The notes under the pieces were generated by a model. It was given only the letters and a program-made list of their open reading frames with translations. It was not told the DNA's origin and ran no database searches. The position numbers were made by a program, and so were the translations under genes. Shown piece after piece: positions 1-11,807 of a stretch of 11,807 bases of DNA (positions are counted from its first letter, which is position 1; each line of letters opens with the position of its first letter). The DNA comes from a virus, in the IMG/VR virus record IMGVR_UViG_3300028840_004049; one strand, written 5' to 3'.

Positions 1-144
1 CAGAAGGGTTTCCGGCTCTCTACCCGGCGCTTGGGCGTGTAACTCACTGAAAATGCAAGCCCCTCCCACGAGCTGCGATATCTTTCGCTGCCATATTCCG
101 TGGATGCTGGAAACACCGTGGAAACAGGGAAGCTGGAGCTTGAC
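1..144. repeat. Left copy of the perfect 144-bp terminal direct repeat
   Basis: nt 1-144 (cagaagggtttccggctctc...ggaagctggagcttgac) match nt 11664-11807 base for base, compared in 10-mers by eye. Confidence 0.95.
108..126. repeat. TGGAAACA-N3-TGGAAACA pair, candidate integrase arm-type site (copy inside the terminal repeat)
   Basis: TGGAAACA at 108-115 and 119-126 with an 11-bp start-to-start spacing. A pair with the same 8-3-8 layout lies at 11535-11553 on the other side of the tRNA-like fragment. Confidence 0.45.
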
Positions 145-167
145 TTCTCCTTTGGATGGTTAATTAT
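140..167 (+). promoter_or_regulatory. Candidate sigma70-type promoter for the 199..747 gene
   Basis: TTGACT (140-145), a 16-nt spacer, then AATTAT (162-167, 4/6 to TATAAT), about 30 nt upstream of ATG 199. This is a motif match only. Confidence 0.3.
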
Positions 168-198: not shown

Positions 199-747
199 AT
201 GGCAGACTGGATCACCGCTATTGCTAGTCAAATCGAAAAACTAGCCGCCCCACTTCAGCCTAGAAACAGCTGGAAAGCTGCTGTTTTGTGCCTGAGTGGG
301 TGGATATTGGCTCTAGTATCTGATGAGGCACGAAGCATCCCCCTATTGCTCCCTCTCGCTCAACTAGGGTCTGTTTTCTTCTCGCTAGCGTTCGTGATCG
401 GCCTCGGGGAGATTGGCTATAGGAGGCGCTCTGAGCGCAAGAAGGCCGAAGAAAAGCTAAGTCAGCAGCGGAGCTTGATCTTCAAATCAAGCCCAGGGCA
501 AAAGACCATGCTCAAAGAGAAGGCGGATAACCACATTCCGTCTCTAAACGCCTCTCATGCGCAAAACAAACACCATTGCCGAATCCTAAGGGACAGGGGG
601 ATCCTTCTAGAGGTTTCACGAACTGCAGCTGGTGTAGATAGAAATACTGACTCTTACAAGATTGCGGGCTGGGCTTACAGTCTGCTTATCAACGATGGCG
701 AGGTCCGTAGGTGGCTAGACGAAGATGAAGGTGAGGATCCGCATTAG
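199..747 (+). CDS. Two-TM membrane protein with a soluble C-terminal domain; possible superinfection-exclusion (SieB-like) protein
   Basis: 182-aa ORF with SD GGAGGG at 190-195. Two hydrophobic helices (WKAAVLCLSGWILALVS and IPLLLPLAQLGSVFFSLAFVIGLGEIGY) are followed by a basic stretch (RRRSERKKAEEK) and a roughly 100-aa soluble tail. This layout recalls the SieB family (PF14163), from memory only. A 60-nt hand count at 199-258 gives 30 G+C, against 41 at 2281-2340. Confidence 0.8.
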   Translation: MADWITAIASQIEKLAAPLQPRNSWKAAVLCLSGWILALVSDEARSIPLLLPLAQLGSVFFSLAFVIGLGEIGYRRRSERKKAEEKLSQQRSLIFKSSPGQKTMLKEKADNHIPSLNASHAQNKHHCRILRDRGILLEVSRTAAGVDRNTDSYKIAGWAYSLLINDGEVRRWLDEDEGEDPH

Positions 748-815
748 CGCATGCTTTGCGCGATCCATTCCAAGGGGGTTTAGCCCCTCTAATCACAACT
801 GGCCGGGAGAGGACG

Positions 816-1529
816 ATGGCTCTCAGCTACAACGCGATCCGAGATTACAGAGTGCCGGAGGCAGGCTTCTCCGATATTGCCGATCGGCTCCCCCCGGGGG
901 ACTCTCAACGAAAAGAGTTCCTCCTCCGAGTTGGAGTCCACTTCAAGTGCCTCCAGCTTCAGCTTCAGCATAGTTCACGGCAATCCAGAGCGGACATGCA
1001 AAAAGCGTTTCGGGCGATGAGCGCCCGGGTAGACGAAATTCTATCGGGATTCCACGATGTTGGGCTCTATGGTCTTGCCGTGCTGCATGAGGTCCTAGAA
1101 GAGGACGATCCCGAGCTCGCCTGGGTGAAGGATGAGAAGGGGCGGAACCTCCCACGGTGGCCGGTCGAACTTCGCGATCTCCAGTCGGGCTTTGAGAACG
1201 CTGCTCAGCGTCTGGAGAAACTCAACCATCGTCCTGCAGGCCAGAGAGCCTTACTGATCGAGTTCATCTGGCGGGTGGCCTGCGACTTCGAAGAGATCTT
1301 CGAGTCCGAAGCTTCTTCTGGATCCAAGGCAACTCCGCGCCCCCCGTTCCAAGCGGCCGTCGAATCCATCATCGAGGAGACCCAAGATCCTGCAGACGAG
1401 GGGGGCCTCAACCTCCATCTGCAGATTCGTGAAGCTCTCAGCAAGCCGAGGGCGCCCCTGCCTACAGATCCTGCCTGGTGGTACTTCAACCAACGGGATT
1501 CCGAGGACCTCTACCGGAGATCCATTTAA
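816..1529 (+). CDS. Hypothetical protein (237 aa from ATG 816; the ORF is open from TTG 756)
   Basis: Long ORF with an in-frame ATG at 816 preceded by GGGAGAGGA (805-813). I recognise no motif. Confidence 0.7.
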   Translation: MALSYNAIRDYRVPEAGFSDIADRLPPGDSQRKEFLLRVGVHFKCLQLQLQHSSRQSRADMQKAFRAMSARVDEILSGFHDVGLYGLAVLHEVLEEDDPELAWVKDEKGRNLPRWPVELRDLQSGFENAAQRLEKLNHRPAGQRALLIEFIWRVACDFEEIFESEASSGSKATPRPPFQAAVESIIEETQDPADEGGLNLHLQIREALSKPRAPLPTDPAWWYFNQRDSEDLYRRSI

Positions 1530-1606
1530 GCACCCCCAACCCTTGCCCCCTTAGTTTTGCCGCCCGTTAAGCCCAGCTTGACATACTGGCCATGCAGGAG
1601 GACAGC

Positions 1607-1828
1607 ATGGCCACGACCATTGTTCAGCAACTCAGAATCCAACGAGGGCTTTCCCAACGCAGTTTGGCCGATCTGGCTGGGTGCTCCAACGCCACAATCT
1701 CTCTTCTAGAACGTGGAGAGCTGAAACCCAGACCACAGCTCGTTCGACGCCTCGCCGCGGCCCTTCAGACATCGCCGTCCCTCCTGAGTCGAGCCCTCCA
1801 GACACTGGAGGTGGCTGATGCTCAGTAA
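1607..1828 (+). CDS. XRE/Cro-CI family helix-turn-helix transcriptional regulator
   Basis: LRIQRGLSQRSLADLAGCSNATISLLERGELKPRPQLVRRLAAAL is a canonical HTH_XRE pattern. AGGAGG at 1596-1601 lies 5 nt before ATG 1607, whereas the ORF-track start at 1592 has no SD. Confidence 0.85.
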   Translation: MATTIVQQLRIQRGLSQRSLADLAGCSNATISLLERGELKPRPQLVRRLAAALQTSPSLLSRALQTLEVADAQ

Positions 1829-2102
1829 ACGCCTCCTGGTACTCGCTGAAGAATTCGCTGGTCTCGCTCTCGAGCTCGAGGCCCATGGGGCCCGGGACGA
1901 GGCCGGCGTCGCTCCCCTCCTGGATACGGACGCTGCGGCCGAGATCCTCTCAGTGAGCTCGTCCACCGTCCGCGAGCTCGTGGCCATGGGCCAGATCCCC
2001 TACATCTCACTCTCCCCTCCGGGCGCCAAGCGCCGGATCGTCCGCTTCGATGCGCAGGAACTCCGGGCCTGGTGGCTTGAGCGCCAGGAGGGCGGCCGGT
2101 GA
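1818..2102 (+). CDS. Excisionase/AlpA-type (MerR-like HTH_17) DNA-binding protein
   Basis: LLDTDAAAEILSVSSSTVRELVAMGQIPYISL...RRIVRFDAQELRAWW fits the excisionase-family HTH pattern (PF12728-like). It overlaps the upstream stop by 11 nt and the downstream start as GTGA. Confidence 0.75.
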   Translation: MLSKRLLVLAEEFAGLALELEAHGARDEAGVAPLLDTDAAAEILSVSSSTVRELVAMGQIPYISLSPPGAKRRIVRFDAQELRAWWLERQEGGR

Positions 2103-3580
2103 ACTCGTCTCTGGATCTTCTCGAACAATCCGAACAGTGGGAAGCCGATCTCAAGGAGGATGAGGAAGCCCTTCAACGCGCAGAGTGCCTGACCGCGCTC
2201 CTCCAGGAAGAGAGAGACGGGACCTCCCCCATCGAGCACACGCACATGGGACTGGCCCAGCTCGCCCTCCAGCTCTTCCCCGGGGAGATCCTCTACGTGC
2301 CGGGATTCGGCGAGTGCGCCTACCACGAGGGCCGGTACGACCTCGGGCCCACGGGCCCCTGGAGGTTCAAGCGCCGGATCGTCAGAGCGGCCAGGTCGAT
2401 TCTCTGGACGGCCACCAGAACCGAGAACCGGCAAGAGCAGAGCGAGCTCATCAAGTGGGGCCGGGCGGCCCAGGCCGATCACTACATCAACGGCGCTGCT
2501 GGGATCCTCCGGACCGATCCCAAGGTCCTGACCTCGGTGGATCAGCTGGATACCGACCCGGACCTTCTCAACACGCCGGCCGGGACCTTCAACCTGGAGA
2601 CGGGCGAGCGGCACGATCACCGGCAGCTGGACCTGTTGACCAAGATCTCGCCGATCAGCCCGGACCCGACGGCCAGGCCCACGAGGTGGCTCAAGACCCT
2701 CCGCTTCGCTTTCGATGGGGACGAGGAGAAGATCGGCTGCTTCCATCGGCTCATGGGGTACGCCGCGAGCGGCCACACGAGCGAGAACCTCATCACGACG
2801 CTGTACGGGACCGGGGCCAACTCGAAGACGACGGTCACCAACGTGATCCAGCGGGTCCTCGGCAACGACTACGCCATGACGGCCGCGCCGGGCCTTCTGC
2901 TCAAGAGGCCCCGGGACACACACCTGACCAGCATTGCCGACCTCTTCGGAAAGCGCCTGGTGCTCAGTTACGAGATGGAGGGTGCCCAGCGACTCGACGA
3001 GCAGCTGCTCAAGAGCGTCACCGGCGGGGACCGGATCCGCGCACGCAAAATGCGCCAGGATGCCTTCGAGTTCGATCCCTCCCACACGCCGCTGCTCATC
3101 GTGAATCACAAGCCGGAGCTCCGCGGGACCGATCACGGACTCTGGCGCCGGATCCTGATCTTCCCCTTCACGGTCACCGTGCCGGAGGAGGACCGAATCA
3201 AGGGCTTCGCCGACATCCTGCTCGAGGAGGAAGGCGGGGCCATCCTGCAGTGGCTCATCGACGGGGCTGCGGCTTGGTACGAGCGCGGTGTCGATCCCCC
3301 GGACTCGCTCCGGGCGGCCACGCAGGCCTACCGCGACGAGAGCGACGTCCTGGGCGGCTTCATCGAGGAGCGTTGCGTCGAGCTTTCCCAGGCGAAGGCG
3401 GCGGCGGGATTCCTCTACAAGGCCTACCAAGCCTGGGCGGCCGAGAACGGCGAGAGCGCTATCAGCGCAAAGGCTTTCGGGATGCGGCTCAAAGAGCGGG
3501 GATTCCGGCAAAAGCGAACTCCGTCAACAAGATACTGGCTCGGCCTCGGGCTTCAGGCGGATGGAGAGCATGACGCATGA
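2099..3580 (+). CDS. Phage/plasmid primase-helicase, P4/D5 family (D5_N plus SF3 NTPase); no recognisable primase catalytic domain
   Basis: LNTPAGTFNLETGERHDH (D5 N-terminal type), Walker A LYGTGANSKTT, Walker B-like LVLSYEME, then LLIVNHKPEL and WRRILIFPF. This matches TIGR01613-type architecture. The GTG start overlaps the upstream TGA. Confidence 0.85.
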   Translation: MNSSLDLLEQSEQWEADLKEDEEALQRAECLTALLQEERDGTSPIEHTHMGLAQLALQLFPGEILYVPGFGECAYHEGRYDLGPTGPWRFKRRIVRAARSILWTATRTENRQEQSELIKWGRAAQADHYINGAAGILRTDPKVLTSVDQLDTDPDLLNTPAGTFNLETGERHDHRQLDLLTKISPISPDPTARPTRWLKTLRFAFDGDEEKIGCFHRLMGYAASGHTSENLITTLYGTGANSKTTVTNVIQRVLGNDYAMTAAPGLLLKRPRDTHLTSIADLFGKRLVLSYEMEGAQRLDEQLLKSVTGGDRIRARKMRQDAFEFDPSHTPLLIVNHKPELRGTDHGLWRRILIFPFTVTVPEEDRIKGFADILLEEEGGAILQWLIDGAAAWYERGVDPPDSLRAATQAYRDESDVLGGFIEERCVELSQAKAAAGFLYKAYQAWAAENGESAISAKAFGMRLKERGFRQKRTPSTRYWLGLGLQADGEHDA

Positions 3581-3767
3581 CGCATCATGACGCTTTGCCC
3601 CTATTCCCCCCTACAACAACCCCTATAGGGGTAATGGGGAACCCGTGTCACCACGTGTCATGCGTCACTCTTTTCCTGGATTCGATCTCGCGAGTCTCTC
3701 ACGCATGCCCCCTTCTCGGGGGCCTTGATCTCATGATTAACCCTCAGAAGCGGAGTTGTAAGCCACT
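3571..3767. promoter_or_regulatory. Repeat- and palindrome-dense non-coding region, candidate replication origin and/or operon control region
   Basis: TGACGCA at 3571-3577 and 3578-3584, TGACGCT at 3588-3594, inverted TGCGTCA at 3661-3667 and a degenerate TCACGCATG at 3699-3707. GTGTCA x2 at 3645-3650 and 3655-3660. CCCCTA x3 at 3598, 3608 and 3620. Perfect palindromes CCCCTATAGGGG (3620-3631) and CTCGCGAG (3687-3694). GC hairpin GCCCCC-TTCTC-GGGGGC (3707-3723) without a U tract. The region lies directly 3' of the helicase gene. Confidence 0.45.
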
Positions 3768-5042
3768 ATGAGTAAGAAGGATACGAAAGGCAGTTTCCAA
3801 GATGTTTCCAAACCTGGTCGCGTCCGAGTCAAGGACACCGGCTCCCCGTCAACGGAGGAGCATACCGAGAAGGCTGCTGTCGAGGAGCAGCCGACGGAAG
3901 GGCCCGGGGCCGATTGTACGGCGGTCGTCGATGCCCCGGTGTCCCTTCCTTCCGCGGAGGACCTCCTCGGGCTCGTACTCCCAGCGTGGGACAGATCGGG
4001 CCCTGCGAACGTGGGCGGGGATCTTACCGCCGTGAAGCAACCTCGCCCTGCCCCGAACATCTTTGCGGCCCGTGGGCCGAAGATACCCGCCAGGATCAAG
4101 GTCAAACCCTACGTGAGAACTCCCGAGGGCCGTGCGGTCCTGGCCTCTCTCTGGTTCGCCCTAGGCTACATGCGCGGGGTGACCAGTGTGGTGGAGAAGG
4201 TCCGTGCTGAGGCCATGCGGGATTTCACTCGGATGAAGGCGTCGGCCATCAACTTCCTCCGCTGGGCGGCTGCTCGCCAGCTTGAGGAAGAGAGCCTAGC
4301 CAAGGGGCACACACTGGAGTCCCTCGCCGGCCAGTCAGAGCCGAAGCACACGACGCCGGAGCCAAAGAAGGCTGGAGATCCGGGCGAGATCTACAAGGAG
4401 TGCCTGACAAAGGTGGCCTACGCTCGCCAGCTGGTCGAAAAGCTCCACGAGTACCCGGGCTTCGGCAAGCTCGTGGAGGGCCACGTCCTACCCGAGGGTT
4501 TCAAGCTGCGCCTGGATGCGACCGAGCGGGAAATCCGAGACGGCCTGGATGATCTCTGCGCTCAGTTCAGCCCCATCAAGAACCGCCGGGAGTTCGATCA
4601 GCTCTTCGGCCTGACAGCGGACATGGACTACAAGGCCAATGCTGAGCAGGTGGAGCGTCACTTCTGGCGCCTGGCCGCTGGCGCCCGGTCCTCAGCGACG
4701 TTGGCTGGGGGCAGCACTCCCCTTGCGCTCCTACCCCGGTCTGTCGTTCAGGCCAAGTGCGCCGTGCCTGGTGGCCGGTACGTCGTCCTCGAAGACACGT
4801 GGGCTGTGCACGGCGTCTTTAAAGAGCTGGAGGTCCGACTCCACAGCGAGATCCAGACCATTGCACGGCTGCAGGACGAGATCGACGAGTTCGATGCCAA
4901 GGCCAACGACTCCTCTCTTCGTACGAAGGAGCGCCAGGAGGCCTTCTCCGCGCGATCGGCGCGTGAGGGGAAGCGTGGCCGCTGCGAGAAGAAGAAGATC
5001 GAGTTGGAGGGCAAGCTGAGGGAGGTCGAGCATGGCAGCTGA
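3768..5042 (+). CDS. Hypothetical protein, 424 aa (low-complexity N-terminus, charged helical C-terminus)
   Basis: Long ORF opening the packaging-side operon. The N-terminal ~110 aa are rich in P/E/T/G and the C-terminal ~70 aa are heptad-like (LHSEIQTIARLQDEIDEFDAKAND...KKKIELEGKLREVE). No family recognised. Confidence 0.75.
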   Translation: MSKKDTKGSFQDVSKPGRVRVKDTGSPSTEEHTEKAAVEEQPTEGPGADCTAVVDAPVSLPSAEDLLGLVLPAWDRSGPANVGGDLTAVKQPRPAPNIFAARGPKIPARIKVKPYVRTPEGRAVLASLWFALGYMRGVTSVVEKVRAEAMRDFTRMKASAINFLRWAAARQLEEESLAKGHTLESLAGQSEPKHTTPEPKKAGDPGEIYKECLTKVAYARQLVEKLHEYPGFGKLVEGHVLPEGFKLRLDATEREIRDGLDDLCAQFSPIKNRREFDQLFGLTADMDYKANAEQVERHFWRLAAGARSSATLAGGSTPLALLPRSVVQAKCAVPGGRYVVLEDTWAVHGVFKELEVRLHSEIQTIARLQDEIDEFDAKANDSSLRTKERQEAFSARSAREGKRGRCEKKKIELEGKLREVEHGS

Positions 5043-5517
5043 GCAGTCTCCACAGGATCGGGCGAGAGCCCTCAGCCGGGAAATGACCAAGAGGGCCTCC
5101 TCGATCAACGCCATCCGGAACGAGCACGGAATGAAAGTGTCCCAGCACGTCAGCCTGATGAGCAGGGCAAGGAAGATCATGGAAGTGCTCGGGGACAGCG
5201 ATAGGCGTGGGCAGCTGACGGGAAACCAGGCCAAGCAGCTGGAGGCTGAGCTCGTCAAGAGCTACGAGGGGATCTATGAGCTGGCCAAGTGGGAAGAACT
5301 CGCAGAGGGCCAGATCACGGAGCTTCAGCAGGAGCTCTCTGGGATCCACAAGGACGCTCGGGAGATCGCCCCGGACCTCATCCCACGGAGCCTACCGGCA
5401 CACCACATGACGAAGCTGACGGCGCTGTTCCGGGATTCGTACCAGAAACTGGATGAGGAGACGGACAGACGTCTCGGCGTTGGCCGTGCGCCCCTCCGGG
5501 TCCAGTCGATGGGGTGA
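5032..5517 (+). CDS. Hypothetical protein, 161 aa (helical, charged)
   Basis: ATG 5032 is preceded by GAGGGAGG (5018-5025). It overlaps the upstream gene by 11 nt and the downstream gene as GTGA. No family recognised. Confidence 0.7.
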   Translation: MAAEQSPQDRARALSREMTKRASSINAIRNEHGMKVSQHVSLMSRARKIMEVLGDSDRRGQLTGNQAKQLEAELVKSYEGIYELAKWEELAEGQITELQQELSGIHKDAREIAPDLIPRSLPAHHMTKLTALFRDSYQKLDEETDRRLGVGRAPLRVQSMG

Positions 5518-6023
5518 GCAAGAAGCCGGGCCGGGGCAAGCAGTGCGTGTACATCAAGGAAGACGGCTCTCGCTGTAAGGGGAATGCCATCAAGGGGACC
5601 GACTACTGCTCCTTCCACAGTGATCTTCCCTCCGTGAAGGAGAAGATGCGGCTGGGGCGACTCCAGGGAGCCGGGACGCGCGTCATCCAGCGGATTCGGG
5701 AGGAACCTCCGATCCCCCTCCGAACGCCTCAGGATGCGCTCACGGTGCTGGAGGATGCCCTGAATCTGATCCGGGCCGTGGGGACCGAGCCGGACCGGTA
5801 CGGCGCGCTCGTGACACAGTTCGTTCGCGCCGGCCTGGAGGCGATGAAGCTGATCCAGACCGAGGAGGTCTCCGAGCAGGAGCTCGTCGAGCTCGATGAA
5901 GCGATCCGCGAGGTTGAGAAGAGCGCGGAGATTGACCTGGCCAAGATGCCTCCCCACCTGAGGGAGGCTTTCGAGGAGTGGATGAGTGTCTCGGAAACGG
6001 ATACTCCAGAAGCTGGCCACTGA
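5514..6023 (+). CDS. Zn-ribbon-like protein in the small-terminase position (putative TerS)
   Basis: The N-terminus KQCVYIKEDGSRCKGNAIKGTDYCSFH carries a C-x9-C-x11-C-x2-H pattern. The gene sits immediately upstream of, and overlaps, the large terminase gene. The functional call is positional only. Confidence 0.35.
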   Translation: MSKKPGRGKQCVYIKEDGSRCKGNAIKGTDYCSFHSDLPSVKEKMRLGRLQGAGTRVIQRIREEPPIPLRTPQDALTVLEDALNLIRAVGTEPDRYGALVTQFVRAGLEAMKLIQTEEVSEQELVELDEAIREVEKSAEIDLAKMPPHLREAFEEWMSVSETDTPEAGH

Positions 6024-7395
6024 TTTCTGGACCTTCGTCGCGGTCTGTGTGAAGACCTTCGACGAGAACGAGCCGGATCCAGGCCTGCGCATGGCCAAGC
6101 CCTTCCCGAGGTTTCTCTACCTCCAACGCGTGGCCGAGGCGCTCCAGCATCACCGGAGCGTCATCGTGCTCAAGCCCCGGCAGATGGGCCTGTCCTGGCT
6201 CGTCGTGGCCTACGCCCTCTGGCGTGTGCTCTTCCACCGCGGGGAGCGGGCCCTGATCGTCTCCAAGCGTGAGAAGGACGCCTTTCACCTGAAGGATCGG
6301 GCGACAGCGATCCTCGACAACCTCCCAAACACGGTCCGCAACTCCCTGGATGTTCGTTCGGCCGACACTCGCGGGGAGATCGTCTTCCGAGGGGGCGGGG
6401 CCGTCCACTTCCTGCCGGCCTCGCCCTCCATCGGGAGAACCTACACAGCCAACCTGGTGATCCTCGACGAGGCGGCCTACCTGCCCGACGCGGAGAAGAT
6501 GTTCGCCTCCCTGGCCCCCACTCTCTCCGGAGGCGGGCGCCTGGTGGCCCTCAGTACTCCGAACGGAGTCGGCGGCCTCTTTCACGAGCTCTGGGTCAAG
6601 GCCCATGAGCGTGGTCTCCATCGGATCCGGCTCCGCTGGAACGATCACCCCGAGCGAGACCAGGCTTGGTTCGACGATGCCAGCGAAGCGCTCTCCCCCA
6701 GGCTGGCCGCTCAGGAGTACGGGGGTGACTTCCTGCAGTCGGGCTCCGTCGTCTTCGACGAGCAATTCCTGGGGCTCCGGGCAAAGCCCTACCTCGACGG
6801 GCAGATCAAGGCGGCCCGTGACCAGGCCCGCGACGACCGCGACGACACGCCCTTCCTGATCGGCGTGGACGTAGCCGAGGGCCACGAGGACAGTGACTAT
6901 TCCGTGGCCACGGTCCTCCACAAGCGAGGCGAGGAATTCATCCAGGCAGCAACCCTCGCCGGCCGGTGGCGCCCGGACGTCTTCGCGCAGAAGCTCGCCC
7001 GATTGCTGGATCTCTTCCCGGGAATCGTCGGCGTCGAGAAGAACGGGCCCGGGGGCATGGTGATCCTCGAGCTCGAGCGGCTCGGCTACTCACCTCGACT
7101 GTACCGTCACCGAGAATGGGATGAGCGTGGCCGGAAGAAGACGCGCGTCGGCTGGGTCACGTCCACGAAGAGCAAGCCGTTGATGATCGGAGAGCTCGAG
7201 GCTGCGCTCAGGACTGGAGCCATCCACCTCTCGGACTCCCCCACTCTCGAGGAGCTTCGGATCTACGAGTACACCGATTCCGCGGCGCAGTACACGTCCG
7301 CGCCAACGGGATTCCATGACGACCGAGTGATCGCCCTCGCGATCGCCTGGCAGATGCGCAAGCGCGCCGGCCGCGAGCTTGCAACGTTTGGATAG
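5986..7395 (+). CDS. terL: Terminase large subunit
   Basis: Walker A-like VLKPRQMGLSW, Walker B LVILDEAAY and coupling motif LSTPNG. The RNaseH-like nuclease half shows IGVDVAEGHEDSDYSV, GVEKNGPGG and HDDRVIALAIAW. GTG start at 5986 with GAGGAG at 5972-5977. Confidence 0.85.
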   Translation: MSRKRILQKLATDFWTFVAVCVKTFDENEPDPGLRMAKPFPRFLYLQRVAEALQHHRSVIVLKPRQMGLSWLVVAYALWRVLFHRGERALIVSKREKDAFHLKDRATAILDNLPNTVRNSLDVRSADTRGEIVFRGGGAVHFLPASPSIGRTYTANLVILDEAAYLPDAEKMFASLAPTLSGGGRLVALSTPNGVGGLFHELWVKAHERGLHRIRLRWNDHPERDQAWFDDASEALSPRLAAQEYGGDFLQSGSVVFDEQFLGLRAKPYLDGQIKAARDQARDDRDDTPFLIGVDVAEGHEDSDYSVATVLHKRGEEFIQAATLAGRWRPDVFAQKLARLLDLFPGIVGVEKNGPGGMVILELERLGYSPRLYRHREWDERGRKKTRVGWVTSTKSKPLMIGELEAALRTGAIHLSDSPTLEELRIYEYTDSAAQYTSAPTGFHDDRVIALAIAWQMRKRAGRELATFG

Positions 7396-7410
7396 GCTGA
7401 AGGAGATAAG

Positions 7411-9372
7411 ATGAGTAGCACCATCACTCGCAAGGGTGTCCTTGAGTTCCAGGTAAAGGGAGTCTCCAAGTCAAAGGGCCAGCTGGCGGCAATGACCTCA
7501 GGGCTTGATAGCCTTAAGAGTACCATTCTTGGTGCAGTGACAGCTTTCGGCTCTCTGAAAGCCACACAGACTGCGATGGAATGGGGAGAAGAAGCGGCGA
7601 AGCTTCATGATGTCGAACGTGCTTTCGAAAACATGGCCGAGAGTGCCGGCGTCGATGGAGTCGCGCTTCTCGAAAAGATGAAGAAGGCCACCGGCGAGAC
7701 CGTTTCCGAACTTCAGCTCATGCAGCAGGCCAACACGGCGATGCTCTTAGACCTCCCCGTGGATCGTTTCGACGAAATCCTCTCCATCGCTCGATCGGCT
7801 GCCCTGTCCACTGGCCAAGAGATGGACTACATGCTCCAGTCTATCGTGACGGGCCTGGGGCGTCAGTCCAAACTCTTCCTCGATAACCTGGGGATCCTGG
7901 TAGATGTCGAGAAAGCCCAGGATGACTACGCGCGGTCTGTCGGTGTCAGCGCACGAGATCTCACGGAGATGGAGCGCAAGCAGGTATTCGTCAACGCGGC
8001 TCTTGAGGCTGGCCGATTGAATATCGAGAAGCTGGGCGGCCTAGTGGGATCTGAAACGGATCCGTTCCGGCGCCTTCATGTCGAGGTCGAAGAACTGAAG
8101 ACAGCTATTGGGGAGGAGTTCCTGGGCGCCCTCTCCTCAGCCACCGGCGGCGTGAATGAGTTCGTCGACCAACTGACCGTGACCCTCGGCGATGAGGGGT
8201 TTGCTGGCGTCTTGGAATCCCTCGACGCAGAGAAACTCGCCCCTCTCTTCGGTGCGGGCGCTGGCAGTAAAATCGGCGGAGTCTTCGGGACAGCTGGCCG
8301 CGCTATCGGTGCTCTGCTAGGCGCTGGAATCGCGTGGGGAGTTGAGCCAGGCATCGAGAAAGCCCTTAGGGAGGGTGCCGTCCGGGAATCGACTGACAGG
8401 ATCGCAAAGGAGTTCCAGATCCGTTCCAAGGATCTGATCGAAGGAAGCCGGGACTTGATGGCTCAGTTGACCAGATGGGGTCAGATGGCCGTCCCGAAGG
8501 ATGTCCTTGCTCCTCTGGCCCGAGACCTCAGCGCCTTCAATTCCAACCTGGGAGAGGCCACCTCAACCTTCAGTAATCTCGTGTTCGCTGAAGAGTGGCT
8601 TGGCCAGCTTGGTGATCGATTCCATGATCTGGGGATCCAGGTTCAAGAGGGTTCGAGTGCTCTGGAGGCGTTGGAGGCGACGGCCGGAAATGGTGTTGTC
8701 CAGGAGGCTCTCTTCAGCACCGGATCCATGGTGGCTGAATTGCGTGGTCAGTATCTCGATCTATCCTGGGCGGCCGTAGAGGGTTTCGAGGTGATGGCTG
8801 ACACCTCGCTGTCCTGGGAGTCGAGAACTGCGCAGGCAATCGCCAGCGTCCTTGAAAACAACGCCTACCTGACAGCGTCCTTCAAGAATGCCCTCTTGAT
8901 GGGGAAGATCTCGTCAAAATCCATCGGCACCTACCTGCAGGAAATGGCTCGTATGGCGATAGCAGCGAAGTCCGCCGAGAGCGCGGTCAACGCCCTCTTC
9001 TACGCGGCCGAGGGCGTCGCTGCCGCAGCCTTCGGCAACTTCGCCCAAGCGGGAGGGCTCTTCAAATCAGCAGCCATGCACGGCGCTATCGCAGCAGGAG
9101 CCGGAGCTCTCGCTTCTATCGGTCCCTCCATGGGCCCACAGGAGTATTCCTCCGCGTCGCCCGGGTACATGGGCAGTGATAGCCTCGCCAGTATGCCAAG
9201 TGGCGGCTCCGAGCGCTCCGTCCACGTCACGCGCACCGCGCCTGTAACCTACAATGTGACACATATTTACCACGGGACCGTCAACTTCGGCTCCCAGGAC
9301 CAGGCCAGCGCTGGCGCGATCCAGGACGTGCTCGACGCTGGGGAGATCTACCTACCAGGCGAAGTGCCGTAG
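7411..9372 (+). CDS. Tail tape-measure-like protein (TP901/minor-tail type N-terminal core, Gly/Ala-rich hydrophobic segments)
   Basis: The N-terminal ~200 aa (AFENMAESAGVDGVALLEKMKKATGETVSELQLMQQANTAMLLDL...LDNLGILVDVEKAQDDYARSVGVSARDLTEMERKQVFVNAALEAG) resemble the tape-measure core. Later segments are hydrophobic (LFGAGAGSKIGGVFGTAGRAIGALLGAGIAWG and AMHGAIAAGAGALASIG). Strong SD GAAGGAG at 7399-7405. Confidence 0.65.
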   Translation: MSSTITRKGVLEFQVKGVSKSKGQLAAMTSGLDSLKSTILGAVTAFGSLKATQTAMEWGEEAAKLHDVERAFENMAESAGVDGVALLEKMKKATGETVSELQLMQQANTAMLLDLPVDRFDEILSIARSAALSTGQEMDYMLQSIVTGLGRQSKLFLDNLGILVDVEKAQDDYARSVGVSARDLTEMERKQVFVNAALEAGRLNIEKLGGLVGSETDPFRRLHVEVEELKTAIGEEFLGALSSATGGVNEFVDQLTVTLGDEGFAGVLESLDAEKLAPLFGAGAGSKIGGVFGTAGRAIGALLGAGIAWGVEPGIEKALREGAVRESTDRIAKEFQIRSKDLIEGSRDLMAQLTRWGQMAVPKDVLAPLARDLSAFNSNLGEATSTFSNLVFAEEWLGQLGDRFHDLGIQVQEGSSALEALEATAGNGVVQEALFSTGSMVAELRGQYLDLSWAAVEGFEVMADTSLSWESRTAQAIASVLENNAYLTASFKNALLMGKISSKSIGTYLQEMARMAIAAKSAESAVNALFYAAEGVAAAAFGNFAQAGGLFKSAAMHGAIAAGAGALASIGPSMGPQEYSSASPGYMGSDSLASMPSGGSERSVHVTRTAPVTYNVTHIYHGTVNFGSQDQASAGAIQDVLDAGEIYLPGEVP

Positions 9373-9416: not shown

Positions 9417-9450
9417 TTGACTCTATCCAGGAAGATTGTACAATGTACAA
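9417..9450 (+). promoter_or_regulatory. Near-consensus sigma70 promoter overlapped by tandem TGTACAA repeats (candidate operator)
   Basis: TTGACT (9417-9422), a 16-nt spacer, then TACAAT (9439-9444). TGTACAA occurs twice in tandem at 9437-9443 and 9444-9450, each containing the palindrome TGTACA. Confidence 0.6.
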
Positions 9451-9457
9451 CAGACCC

Positions 9458-9646
9458 ATGAAGGCACACGAGCTGAAAAAGTGGAGAGAGGCCCTGGGCC
9501 TGACGCAGCGAGAGCTGGCCGAGAAGCTCTACGTCACGAAGGATGCCGTCGCATCCTGGGAAACTGGAAGACGCAAGGTCCCAGCCTACCTCCATCTCGC
9601 CATGAAGCAGCTCGAGAGCCCCAACCGCCGAAAGGGGAAACCATGA
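9458..9646 (+). CDS. Short XRE-family HTH regulator (62 aa from ATG 9458; the ORF-track start 9443 lies inside the -10 box)
   Basis: LKKWREALGLTQRELAEKLYVTKDAVASWETGRRKVPAYLHLAM is a canonical HTH_XRE pattern with no peptidase or sensor domain. No SD precedes either ATG, and ATG 9458 would lie about 6-8 nt from the predicted transcription start. Confidence 0.8.
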   Translation: MKAHELKKWREALGLTQRELAEKLYVTKDAVASWETGRRKVPAYLHLAMKQLESPNRRKGKP

Positions 9647-9912
9647 AGGCAGCAACTCTGGCTCGCCGTCAGATCCGCGAAGGCTACGATCTCGATTTCA
9701 AGAAAGGATGGGAGGCCCTCGCTGACGATCTTCAACTCCTCGCCGAATCCATCCGTCGGCAGGAGATCGAGCCCTGCTTCTTCCACCTCTCCCTCGATAC
9801 CTGGGACAATCCGAACGAGATCACCATGCTTGGAGTTGGATCCAGCCCCGAGAAGAACCGGATCCCTCAGCAGGTCCTCGTAAGTTCTGATCCTCAGCAG
9901 AGGGGGCTATGA
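9643..9912 (+). CDS. Hypothetical small protein, 89 aa (paralog A)
   Basis: ATG 9643 overlaps the XRE stop as ATGA, with AAAGGGGAAA upstream. It aligns without gaps to the next gene product. The ORF-track entry 9436..9912 is the same frame extended upstream through the XRE gene. Confidence 0.65.
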   Translation: MKAATLARRQIREGYDLDFKKGWEALADDLQLLAESIRRQEIEPCFFHLSLDTWDNPNEITMLGVGSSPEKNRIPQQVLVSSDPQQRGL

Positions 9913-10154
9913 TGGATCTCCTTCACCGAGTTTACGATCTCGACAGCCCTAAAGGAGCGGAACACTTCAGCAAGAACTTGCGGGAAGTCGCCGACATGAT
10001 TGATGATGGACGGCTCCTCCCGAGCTTTGTGCAGCTAAGCCTCATGACTCAAGAAAATGAAGCTGGACTCCGGGTCTACTTCGCCGCGTGGAGTCGCTCT
10101 CGTATGGGGCATCCGCGAGAAATGAAAGTCCTCCCCGGCGGGAAGGAGTCCTGA
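9909..10154 (+). CDS. Hypothetical small protein, 81 aa (paralog B)
   Basis: ATGA overlap with the upstream gene and TGATG overlap with int. It shares YDLD..KG.E....L...A..I......P.F..LSL.T..N with the 89-aa protein. Confidence 0.65.
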   Translation: MMDLLHRVYDLDSPKGAEHFSKNLREVADMIDDGRLLPSFVQLSLMTQENEAGLRVYFAAWSRSRMGHPREMKVLPGGKES

Positions 10155-11534: not shown

Positions 11535-11553
11535 TGGAAACAGAATGGAAACA
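11535..11553. repeat. TGGAAACA-N3-TGGAAACA pair, candidate integrase arm-type site
   Basis: TGGAAACA at 11535-11542 and 11546-11553 in an 8-3-8 layout, same orientation as the pair at 11771-11789 (=108-126). Confidence 0.45.
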
Positions 11554-11580
11554 TTCTCACGAGATCTTGGCCGACACGAC

Positions 11581-11620
11581 GAAGCCCCTCTTCCTAAGTC
11601 CAAGGAAGAGGGGCTTTTCG
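11581..11620 (+). terminator. Rho-independent terminator of the int / small-ORF transcript
   Basis: A 13-14 bp stem GAAGCCCCTCTTCC / GGAAGAGGGGCTTT with the 9-nt loop TAAGTCCAA, ending in TTTT (11615-11618). On the minus strand the hairpin is not followed by a T run. Confidence 0.7.
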
Positions 11621-11621
11621 C

Positions 11622-11660
11622 GGGTGGAGCCAAGGGGGATCGAACCCCTGACCTCATGAC
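11622..11660 (-). other. 3' fragment of a tRNA-Ala-like or tmRNA-like gene (variable loop, T arm, acceptor 3' strand); candidate att core
   Basis: The minus strand reads GAGGTC-AGGGG-TTCGATC-CCCCT-TGGCTCC-A-CC, giving a canonical T arm, a 7-nt acceptor strand and discriminator A. The U opposite position 3 is compatible with the G3:U70 pair shared by tRNA-Ala and tmRNA. Sequence further 5' does not fold into anticodon or D arms and there is no matching GGGGCCA/GGAGCCA 5' strand, so this is not an intact tRNA. Confidence 0.55.
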
Positions 11661-11663
11661 TGC

Positions 11664-11807
11664 CAGAAGGGTTTCCGGCTCTCTACCCGGCGCTTGGGCG
11701 TGTAACTCACTGAAAATGCAAGCCCCTCCCACGAGCTGCGATATCTTTCGCTGCCATATTCCGTGGATGCTGGAAACACCGTGGAAACAGGGAAGCTGGA
11801 GCTTGAC
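11664..11807. repeat. Right copy of the perfect 144-bp terminal direct repeat
   Basis: Identical to nt 1-144. It begins 3 nt beyond the tRNA-like fragment and runs to the last base of the window. It contains the TGGAAACA pair at 11771-11789. Confidence 0.95.

Follow-up and report, generated by a model that had tools for sequence, protein, structure and literature searches.

The viral record IMGVR_UViG_3300028840_004049 of IMG/VR is a stretch of 11,807 nt (the window), in which an 11,663-bp circle is followed by an exact terminal overlap of 144 nt (1-144 and 11664-11807 are 100% identical). An earlier note, made from these letters alone, had read the window as a candidate novel phage satellite with a terminase and a tape-measure-like gene and without recognisable portal, capsid, tail or lysis genes. 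All credible genes of this element lie on the plus strand, and its 11.66 kb are fully taken up by the genes in Table 1. Matches to Pfam, PHROGs and NCBIfam bear out the gene inventory of the earlier note, i.e. a tyrosine integrase (int), an HTH_17 or excisionase-like protein, two XRE regulators, a D5_N/SF3 helicase, the terminase TerL and a tail tape-measure protein (TMP). The protein described there as being in the position of TerS, here named o169, does occupy that position, with a 38-nt overlap between its gene and the start of TerL; a match to a TerS family was not obtained in the same three libraries. The helicase matched phrog_2478 (E=1e-102) along the C-terminal half of the profile only, which corresponds to the C-terminal region of P4-family primases, and an N-terminal primase domain was not found with Pfam, PHROGs and NCBIfam profiles.

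Table 1. Features of the element, in coordinates of the window
Feature	Position	Strand	Evidence and remarks
Terminal overlap	1..144		identical to 11664-11807; unit 11,663 bp
Promoter-like site	140-167		upstream of o182; promoter scan
o182, orphan accessory protein	199..747	+	two N-terminal hydrophobic segments; GC 0.52; no family matches
o257, orphan backbone gene upstream of XRE	756..1529	+	gene callers start at ~816 (237 aa)
XRE-family HTH regulator	1592..1828	+	Pfam HTH_3 E=7e-14; homolog in L158
HTH_17 (AlpA/excisionase-type) DNA-binding protein	1818..2102	+	PF12728 E=3.7e-9; phrog_66; homologs in L158 and L160
D5_N + SF3 helicase + Pox_D5 C-terminal domain	2099..3580	+	Pfam D5_N, DUF5906, Pox_D5; TIGR01613 E=1e-72
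Candidate replication origin	3570..3668		direct and inverted repeats
o424, first gene of three-gene module	3768..5042	+	three remote homologs
o161, second gene of module	5032..5517	+	homologs at same position in L158 and L162; no family matches
o169 (169 aa), third gene of module, TerS position	5514..6023	+	N-terminal CCCH zinc-ribbon motif, helical C-terminus
TerL, intact	5986..7395	+	phrog_2 E=1.5e-38; Pfam Terminase_6N E=1.2e-7
TMP, full length, 653 aa	7411..9372	+	phrog_3779 E=2e-11 (N-terminus); phrog_32115
Promoter-like site	9417-9444		promoter scan 10/12
Second XRE regulator (XRE67)	9443-9646	+	HTH_3 E=4.7e-10
o89 + o81, small paralogous orphans	9643..10154	+	direct repeat D15; no family matches
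Tyrosine integrase, 397 aa	10154..11347	+	PF00589 E=1e-15; gene also called in L001; o47 after it
Candidate attP	11535..11789		arm-type motif pairs, tRNA/tmRNA-like 3' fragment, terminator hairpin

A second contig, L001 (ENA ERZ27256790, k141_4079772, 11,804 bp), carries the same 11,663-bp sequence in circularly permuted form, with one mismatch (99.99% identity). The terminal repeat is, therefore, the overlap of a circular assembly and not the att-like site for which it had been taken, and a reading of the two repeat copies as attL and attR is ruled out. We conclude that the element is the complete circular form of an integrative mobile element of 11,663 bp. Parts of it were also recovered in L002 (Logan SRR6963492; XRE through TMP), L157 (JGI 3300029267; TMP 3' end, int and att region, on to TerL) and L170 (ERZ27256773; o169, TerL and the start of TMP). 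The cluster of TerL proteins comprises ~13 contigs with three full-length haplotypes, compared without the differing start-codon residue.

TerL shares with its phage relatives the conserved motifs KPRQMGLS (deviant Walker A), ILDEAAY (Walker B) as well as GVDVAEG and HDDRV (nuclease). Its identity to three outgroup TerL proteins was 38, 33 and 32%, and the same comparison gave 39/33/36% and 38/34/35% for undoubted phage TerL proteins; the values being similar, there is no sign of accelerated, unconstrained evolution of TerL in the element. TMP aligned at its N and C termini with the TMP of the phage contig L003 (620 aa; see below) and with P0002 (594 aa), its closest relative, which is 60% identical over the N-terminal part. 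Together with the match to phrog_3779, this turns the call of a tape-measure-like gene in the earlier note into that of a full-length TMP. The TMP gene starts 15 nt past the TerL stop codon and has an AAGGAG ribosome-binding site. Among cultured relatives, none exceeded ~31% identity for TerL or ~40% for local matches of TMP. In total, these comparisons identify TerL and TMP as genuine phage genes in intact form.

In phages, the relatives of these two genes are far apart. The six closest TerL relatives are 52-62% identical (L003, L004, L005 on the same contig as L073, L006, L072 and L074), and in all six a portal gene follows directly after TerL; where the contig reaches far enough, TerS lies ahead of TerL (L003, L004 and L005) and head genes lie behind the portal (L003, L004, L006 and L074). 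L003 (IMGVR_UViG_3300013118_000326) is a 32.7-kb contig of an uncultured temperate siphovirus with the order TerS-TerL-portal-head-tail-TMP and its own, unrelated integrase. Its TMP ortholog starts 9.3 kb after TerL, and portal, head, major-head and minor-tail genes lie between (PHROGs). L003 gave the best or near-best phage match for both genes of the element (TerL 62%, TMP ~45% identical). Moreover, the contexts of TMP relatives were normal tail modules in 4/4 cases looked up, a set that does not include the contig of P0002; the homologs P0013, P0015 and P0006, for example, are preceded by a Phage_tube_2 tail-tube gene and small genes the size of chaperones and followed by distal-tail genes.

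The L003-type siphoviruses are like the element in TerL (52-62% identical) and in TMP (~45%, with the same N- and C-terminal architecture), and unlike it in their genes for TerS, portal, head, tail tube, chaperone and distal tail, which lie between and after TerL and TMP, and in their unrelated integrase. They have no homologs of the helicase, o424, o161 and o169 of the element: in L003, of which ~31 of 32.7 kb were read, no homolog of these four proteins, of o257 or of the XRE and HTH_17 regulators was detected, and the integrase is only 24% identical. A simple deletion derivative of an L003-like phage is ruled out for the sampled phages, since the rest of L003 has no backbone homologs except this integrase. 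That TerL and TMP both match L003 points to phages of this type, which we regard as the best candidate helper lineage on the basis of these alignments. On the contig of L005/L073, an XRE gene at 3556-3765, ~1 kb upstream of TerS, encodes a protein 47% identical to the first XRE of the element, and the TerL on that contig is 54% identical; regulatory circuitry may be common to the element and the candidate helper lineage.

The remaining genes led to relatives of a different kind. In a word-indexed search o424 was an orphan; in an exhaustive HMMER scan of 1.84e9 representatives it had three remote homologs (E=5e-9 to 5e-7). One of these lies in L158 (JAFGBK010000084.1 of the metagenome-assembled genome GCA_016933175.1), where a chromosomally integrated relative of the backbone (~9 kb, 7903-16952) is located between coaE and aspS; no flanking direct repeats or tRNA were found for this element. 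Its gene order is a weakly o257-like gene, XRE, HTH_17, two small genes, o424-like, o161-like and o169-like (39% identical) genes and an integrase. The first integrase is followed by a gene similar to RHH proteins, DUF6602, a membrane protein with two transmembrane segments and the second of its two tyrosine integrases, which is 31% identical to that of the element. The homolog of o161 matched with E=2e-7. L162 and L163 together contain o424-like, o161-like and o169-like (37% identical) genes and then an integrase, and L160 and L161 contain HTH_17, D5_N, DUF5906 and an o424-like gene. Neither TerL nor TMP is present in L158 or in L160-L163. In the element, these two genes, along with XRE67, o89 and o81, fill the slot that separates the module from the integrase; in L158, this slot is taken up by other cargo. 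The element shares with its relatives of the L158, L160 and L162 type collinear genes for XRE, HTH_17, a replication gene, o424-, o161- and o169-like proteins and a tyrosine integrase. Altogether, the gene orders indicate that o424-o161-o169 has been conserved as a module across a family of small integrative elements, and that the element combines the backbone of a small island with two genes of one temperate siphovirus lineage. It is, then, a chimera rather than a reduced version of any of the sampled phages.

The AlphaFold2 model of o424, built with its three remote homologs (mean predicted local distance difference test score, pLDDT, 67; predicted TM-score 0.60), is all-alpha with long helices, a coiled-coil C terminus and a disordered N terminus, and this fold had no significant match in PDB or BFVD. 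With an all-alpha fold and no match to it, o424 is ruled out both as a capsid protein of the HK97 fold and as a portal. o161 is helical as read by eye. In o169, the residues C11, C21, C32 and H35, which form a CCCH zinc ribbon, are invariant with the homologs in L158, L162 and L163 (37-39% identical), i.e. in elements without TerL. The protein also has weak similarity to zf-primase/MCM10; a profile search against PDB returned nothing but helical proteins of designed origin and a weakly matching zinc finger of MCM10, and its single-sequence AlphaFold2 model was unreliable (pLDDT 56.6). A divergent TerS of the related phages was considered for both o169 and o161 and rejected, with an hhalign probability of ~0.1 and no matches in phage and plasmid records. 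Because of its position, the overlap of its gene with the TerL start and its likely nucleic-acid-binding motif, we consider o169 a candidate packaging-specificity protein, i.e. an analog of TerS. The same zinc-ribbon motif, C..I.K.G..C...AI.G....C..H, was found in an unrelated small protein of the 'HGG' type encoded at 9737-10225 of L164 (IMGVR_UViG_3300045241_000108), a 46-kb viral contig in which the gene adjoins a primase/RepA-like gene; this was the only such protein from the IMG/VR scan. Its occurrence in an unrelated protein suggests that the motif is a widespread module of mobile elements.

For none of the ORFs (open reading frames) on either strand did Pfam, PHROGs, NCBIfam and PADLOC return a family for portal, capsid, protease, connector, tail tube, baseplate, holin or endolysin, and TMP is the only tail gene of the element. 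A capsid protein or portal hidden among the orphans was likewise rejected, given these negative scans, antisense ORFs included, and the all-alpha model of o424. With regard to the features of an autonomous tailed phage (Caudoviricetes), we found neither an HK97-fold capsid protein nor a portal, o257, o161 and o182 being without a confident model, and neither tail tube, tip and connector nor a lysis cassette. The absence of virion and lysis genes reported in the earlier note therefore withstood profile scans and modelling, as did its claim that the element cannot build a virion alone, since capsid, portal, tail-tube and lysis genes are lacking.

Downstream of int lies a set of sequence signals in the layout of an attachment site. 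On the minus strand, a tRNA/tmRNA-like 3' fragment at ~11622-11666 comprises the T-arm AGGGG-TTCGATC-CCCCT, the acceptor strand TGGCTCC and the discriminator A, and has a T at what would be the G3:U70 pairing position. Two tandem pairs of TGGAAACA, with a spacing of 11 nt, bracket this core at 11535-11553 and 11771-11789; the motif occurs 7 times in the window compared with 0.19 expected occurrences. A strong terminator hairpin is present at 11580-11618. A complete tRNA was not found by Aragorn, and Rfam gave weak matches only (tmRNA model, E=0.19). The core and arm-type sites, in classic layout next to int, likely constitute attP. Immediately past the stop codon of the helicase gene, a spacer of ~50 nt is framed by three ATGACGC heptamers in direct orientation and three inverted ones (GTGTCAC/GTGTCAT/GCGTCAC), an arrangement that makes the region an iteron-like candidate for the replication origin; an ORF of 64 aa called at 3577-3771 may be spurious. 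PICI origins lie at the corresponding position, next to the replicase gene.

P4-like and PICI satellites are recognised by the combination of int, an AlpA-type HTH protein and a P4-type replicase (PMC10085698), and this core, the size of the element and its tRNA-type att site all agree with known satellites. Like PICI and P4-like elements (10-15 kb), the element has int, an AlpA-type HTH_17 protein, a P4-family (D5_N/primase C-terminal) replicase, a tRNA-type att site and a candidate origin by the replicase gene; it differs from them in having all genes on one strand, int at the 3' end and a helicase without the N-terminal primase domain. P4 is ~11.6 kb, one third of P2. The PICI trio was found as PF00589, PF12728 and D5_N with TIGR01613, as judged by Pfam and NCBIfam matches and not by SatelliteFinder profiles, and SatelliteFinder would class this trio as 'Type C PICI' (PMC10085698). 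Tail genes are, however, forbidden in its PICI model (PMC10085698), and the element has a full-length TMP. Neither sid, psu, delta and epsilon nor a recognisable TerS, Ppi, Cpm or Rpp was detected with Pfam, PHROGs and NCBIfam; the position of the PICI hijacking module is occupied by o424-o161-o169. P4-like satellites carry the former four genes along with the alpha primase-helicase, and the element has only the alpha-like helicase, i.e. the C-terminal part.

A satellite-encoded TerL is already known, as TerL is a cfPICI-specific core gene (PMC10085698). Like cfPICI, the element has its own TerL (phrog_2, Terminase_6N), int, AlpA-type HTH protein and replicase. cfPICI, which have 11 core components, also encode major capsid protein, portal, protease, head-tail adaptor, connector and TerS/HNH (PMC10085698), none of which was detected in the element by the family scans. 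cfPICI steal tails only; for the element, heads and the greater part of the tail would have to be stolen. A satellite-encoded TMP has precedents as well. Some cfPICI carry putative tmp genes (PMC12987554, Extended Data Fig. 10), and PLE was shown experimentally to replace the helper TMP with its own, giving chimeric tails whose length follows the satellite TMP, with tmp genes also present in other putative satellites (PMC12987554). PLE, which resembles the element in having its own TMP, differs from it in having a tail-assembly chaperone and BhuB, in lacking TerL and in its helper, the lytic myovirus ICP1; the general Pfam and PHROGs scans gave no match to PLE core families, and PLE-specific profiles were not run. 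EPIP of Mycolicibacterium (~11 kb) likewise encodes a TMP and, like the element, is a circular contig without tail and lysis genes; unlike the element, it has a serine integrase, TerS, a head-to-tail adaptor and stopper, a scaffold and a gene annotated as major capsid protein, and no TerL (PMC12822802). The element has a tyrosine integrase and TerL, and Pfam and PHROGs detected no adaptor, stopper or scaffold in it.

Because the defining features of PICI, cfPICI, P4-like satellites, PLE and EPIP were each tested and not found in full, the element belongs to none of these described families, in agreement with the earlier note. The novelty claimed there has to be narrowed: TerL and TMP each have precedents in satellites, and what is new is that the pair occurs with no gene for capsid, portal, connector or chaperone and that its backbone is an unrelated one with a conserved module. 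By analogy, the element most plausibly works as a hybrid of cfPICI, with their own TerL, and PLE, with its own TMP.

We know of no use of TerL besides the packaging of DNA into a portal-bearing procapsid. Since TerL serves only such a procapsid and TMP only a tail, and the element makes neither, a helper phage is required if the two genes function. Thus, with a probability of about one half, we read the element as a chimeric satellite whose own TerL would package element DNA into helper procapsids and whose own TMP would go into helper tails. The element would integrate at the 3' end of a tRNA or tmRNA gene and would excise and replicate when a related helper phage develops. TerL, probably directed by o169 as TerS analog, would then package element DNA into procapsids made by the helper; the heads could be of full size and hold about three genome copies, or could be remodelled by the o424/o161 module. 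Three copies amount to 34,989 bp (3 x 11,663), and the related phage contigs measure 32.7 and 36.4 kb; with the element at about one third of these lengths, headful packaging of trimers may be possible, as has been suggested for other small satellites (PMC12822802). Finally, the TMP of the element would be built into helper tails, yielding chimeric tails as in PLE. In this scheme, the dependence on a helper, the packaging and the parts played by o169, o424 and o161 are what we infer. Somewhat more tentatively, the element may represent a new satellite family with two points of attack on a siphovirus, which it would hijack with its own TerL, steered by the zinc-ribbon TerS analog, and with its own TMP, taking all other virion parts from the helper; o424-o161-o169 would then be a hijacking module common to smaller satellites without TerL and TMP.

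Several observations weigh against the chimeric satellite. o169 has no detectable similarity to any TerS in Pfam, PHROGs, NCBIfam, hhalign comparisons or phage and plasmid records. No ORF for a tail-assembly chaperone lies upstream of TMP, where TerL abuts TMP, unlike in PLE. The element is a single near-clonal lineage known from metagenomic contigs alone. Its circular form, found in several samples, is compatible with a helper-driven satellite and not specific to one; a plasmid-like episome would give a circular assembly, too. The earlier note had proposed a search of genomes and metagenomes for related elements; this yielded the backbone relatives described above, while no further, divergent element in which TerL adjoins TMP turned up, whether with TerL in IMG/VR, JGI metagenomes and GTDB genomes, with TMP and P0002 in IMG/VR, in the index of 5.8e9 proteins or among the TMP contexts. 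Moreover, the L157 variant contains two G-to-A changes in TerL (7118/7123), which give W378* and E380K 110 nt from the contig end, and it has lost 110 nt of the att region (compared with 11667-11776), apparently by deletion between ATGaCTGG microhomologies, including one arm-type site. The nonsense codon and the deletion of an attP arm hint that selection on TerL is perhaps relaxed; the changes stem from either a decaying sub-population or a contig-end error, and for those in TerL the nearby contig end makes a sequencing error conceivable. The satellite reading of the earlier note is nevertheless supported in part and the best single explanation, with a satellite-like core of int, HTH_17 and P4-type helicase, even though its att repeat was lost and no second element of the same layout was gained.

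The same observations bear on the alternative that survives best, in which TerL and TMP are functionless passengers that a small self-replicating integrative element, or a phage with its backbone, kept or caught by illegitimate recombination or deletion, the circle being an excised form or a plasmid-like episome. This account is possible, though we consider it unlikely. The layout of TerL and TMP is a singleton, backbone relatives exist without any phage gene, the two genes sit in a variable cargo slot, neither TerS nor a tail-assembly chaperone is recognisable, and L157 carries the lesions described above. However, neither gene is truncated, all motifs are present, the two lie close together with a good ribosome-binding site, and TerL has not evolved faster than phage TerL proteins. 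The boundaries between TerL and TMP and between TMP and the promoter and XRE gene are flush with gene ends, which would be a rare outcome of random deletion, and the intact form predominates in several samples. Finally, no parent phage with a TerL more than 62% identical was found in IMG/VR, JGI metagenomes and GTDB genomes. The intact ORFs, the unaccelerated rate of TerL and the recovery of the same circle in several independent assemblies uphold the argument of the earlier note against heavy decay. Its main alternative, a decayed prophage, is weakened, as the backbone is unrelated to the phages with which TerL and TMP are shared and is collinear with small integrative elements free of phage genes.

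Alternatively, TerL and TMP might be anti-phage cargo, acting as decoys or dominant-negative subunits against packaging and tail assembly of L003-like phages, in which case the host would be protected and the element would not be packaged. We regard this as improbable: all catalytic motifs of TerL are intact and a decoy would need none, we know of no precedent for TerL as a defence decoy, and PADLOC found no defence family among the 10 ORFs scanned, a set with TMP and without TerL. The idea draws on the slot itself, which holds DUF6602, the RHH protein and the membrane protein in L158 and in which satellites and islands often carry defence cargo, and on documented interference of mobile elements with tail assembly and TMP (PMC11364771; Rta in PMC12987554).

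It is very improbable that the element is an autonomous, very small virus with capsid and portal of unrecognisable folds among o424, o257, o182 and o161; five orphan ORFs are without annotation and only o424 has a moderately confident model, but that model is all-helical and matches neither capsid nor portal, homologs of o424, o161, o169 and o257 occur in elements without TerL or TMP, and a TMP implies a long tail whose tube, tip and connector genes would not fit into 11.7 kb. An assembly chimera of a phage fragment and an unrelated island is hardly credible: the element is known from metagenomic assemblies only, but the same junctions were recovered from different samples in MEGAHIT-style k141 contigs (ENA), Logan contigs and JGI assemblies, which are independent of each other because point variants differ among them, and the element is therefore real.

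o182, o257, o89 and o81 are orphans. o182 adjoins att in the part of the element with the lowest GC content (0.52), and in the protein the two N-terminal hydrophobic helices are followed by a highly charged stretch; from these features, a membrane protein for exclusion or abortive infection, or one of holin type, is conceivable. o257 had no relatives among 5.8e9 proteins and is weakly similar to the first gene of the L158 element. o89 and o81, between the second XRE gene and int, are tandem paralogs with the shared pattern YDLD..KG...L..A..I....P.F..LSL.T, and no homologs were found in any library searched.

If TerL and TMP are relics, the element is an ordinary mosaic island and of little consequence. 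Should it function as a satellite, a packaging motor and a tape measure, with no capsid genes, could be the least that a satellite supplies for itself; this set would lie between PICI-type satellites, which supply little or nothing structural, and cfPICI, which supply whole heads, and the chimeric-tail strategy of PLE would extend to an unrelated lineage with a siphovirus helper. The o424-o161-o169 module in small integrative elements of uncultured bacteria is a target in which new mechanisms of hijacking or packaging redirection may be sought.

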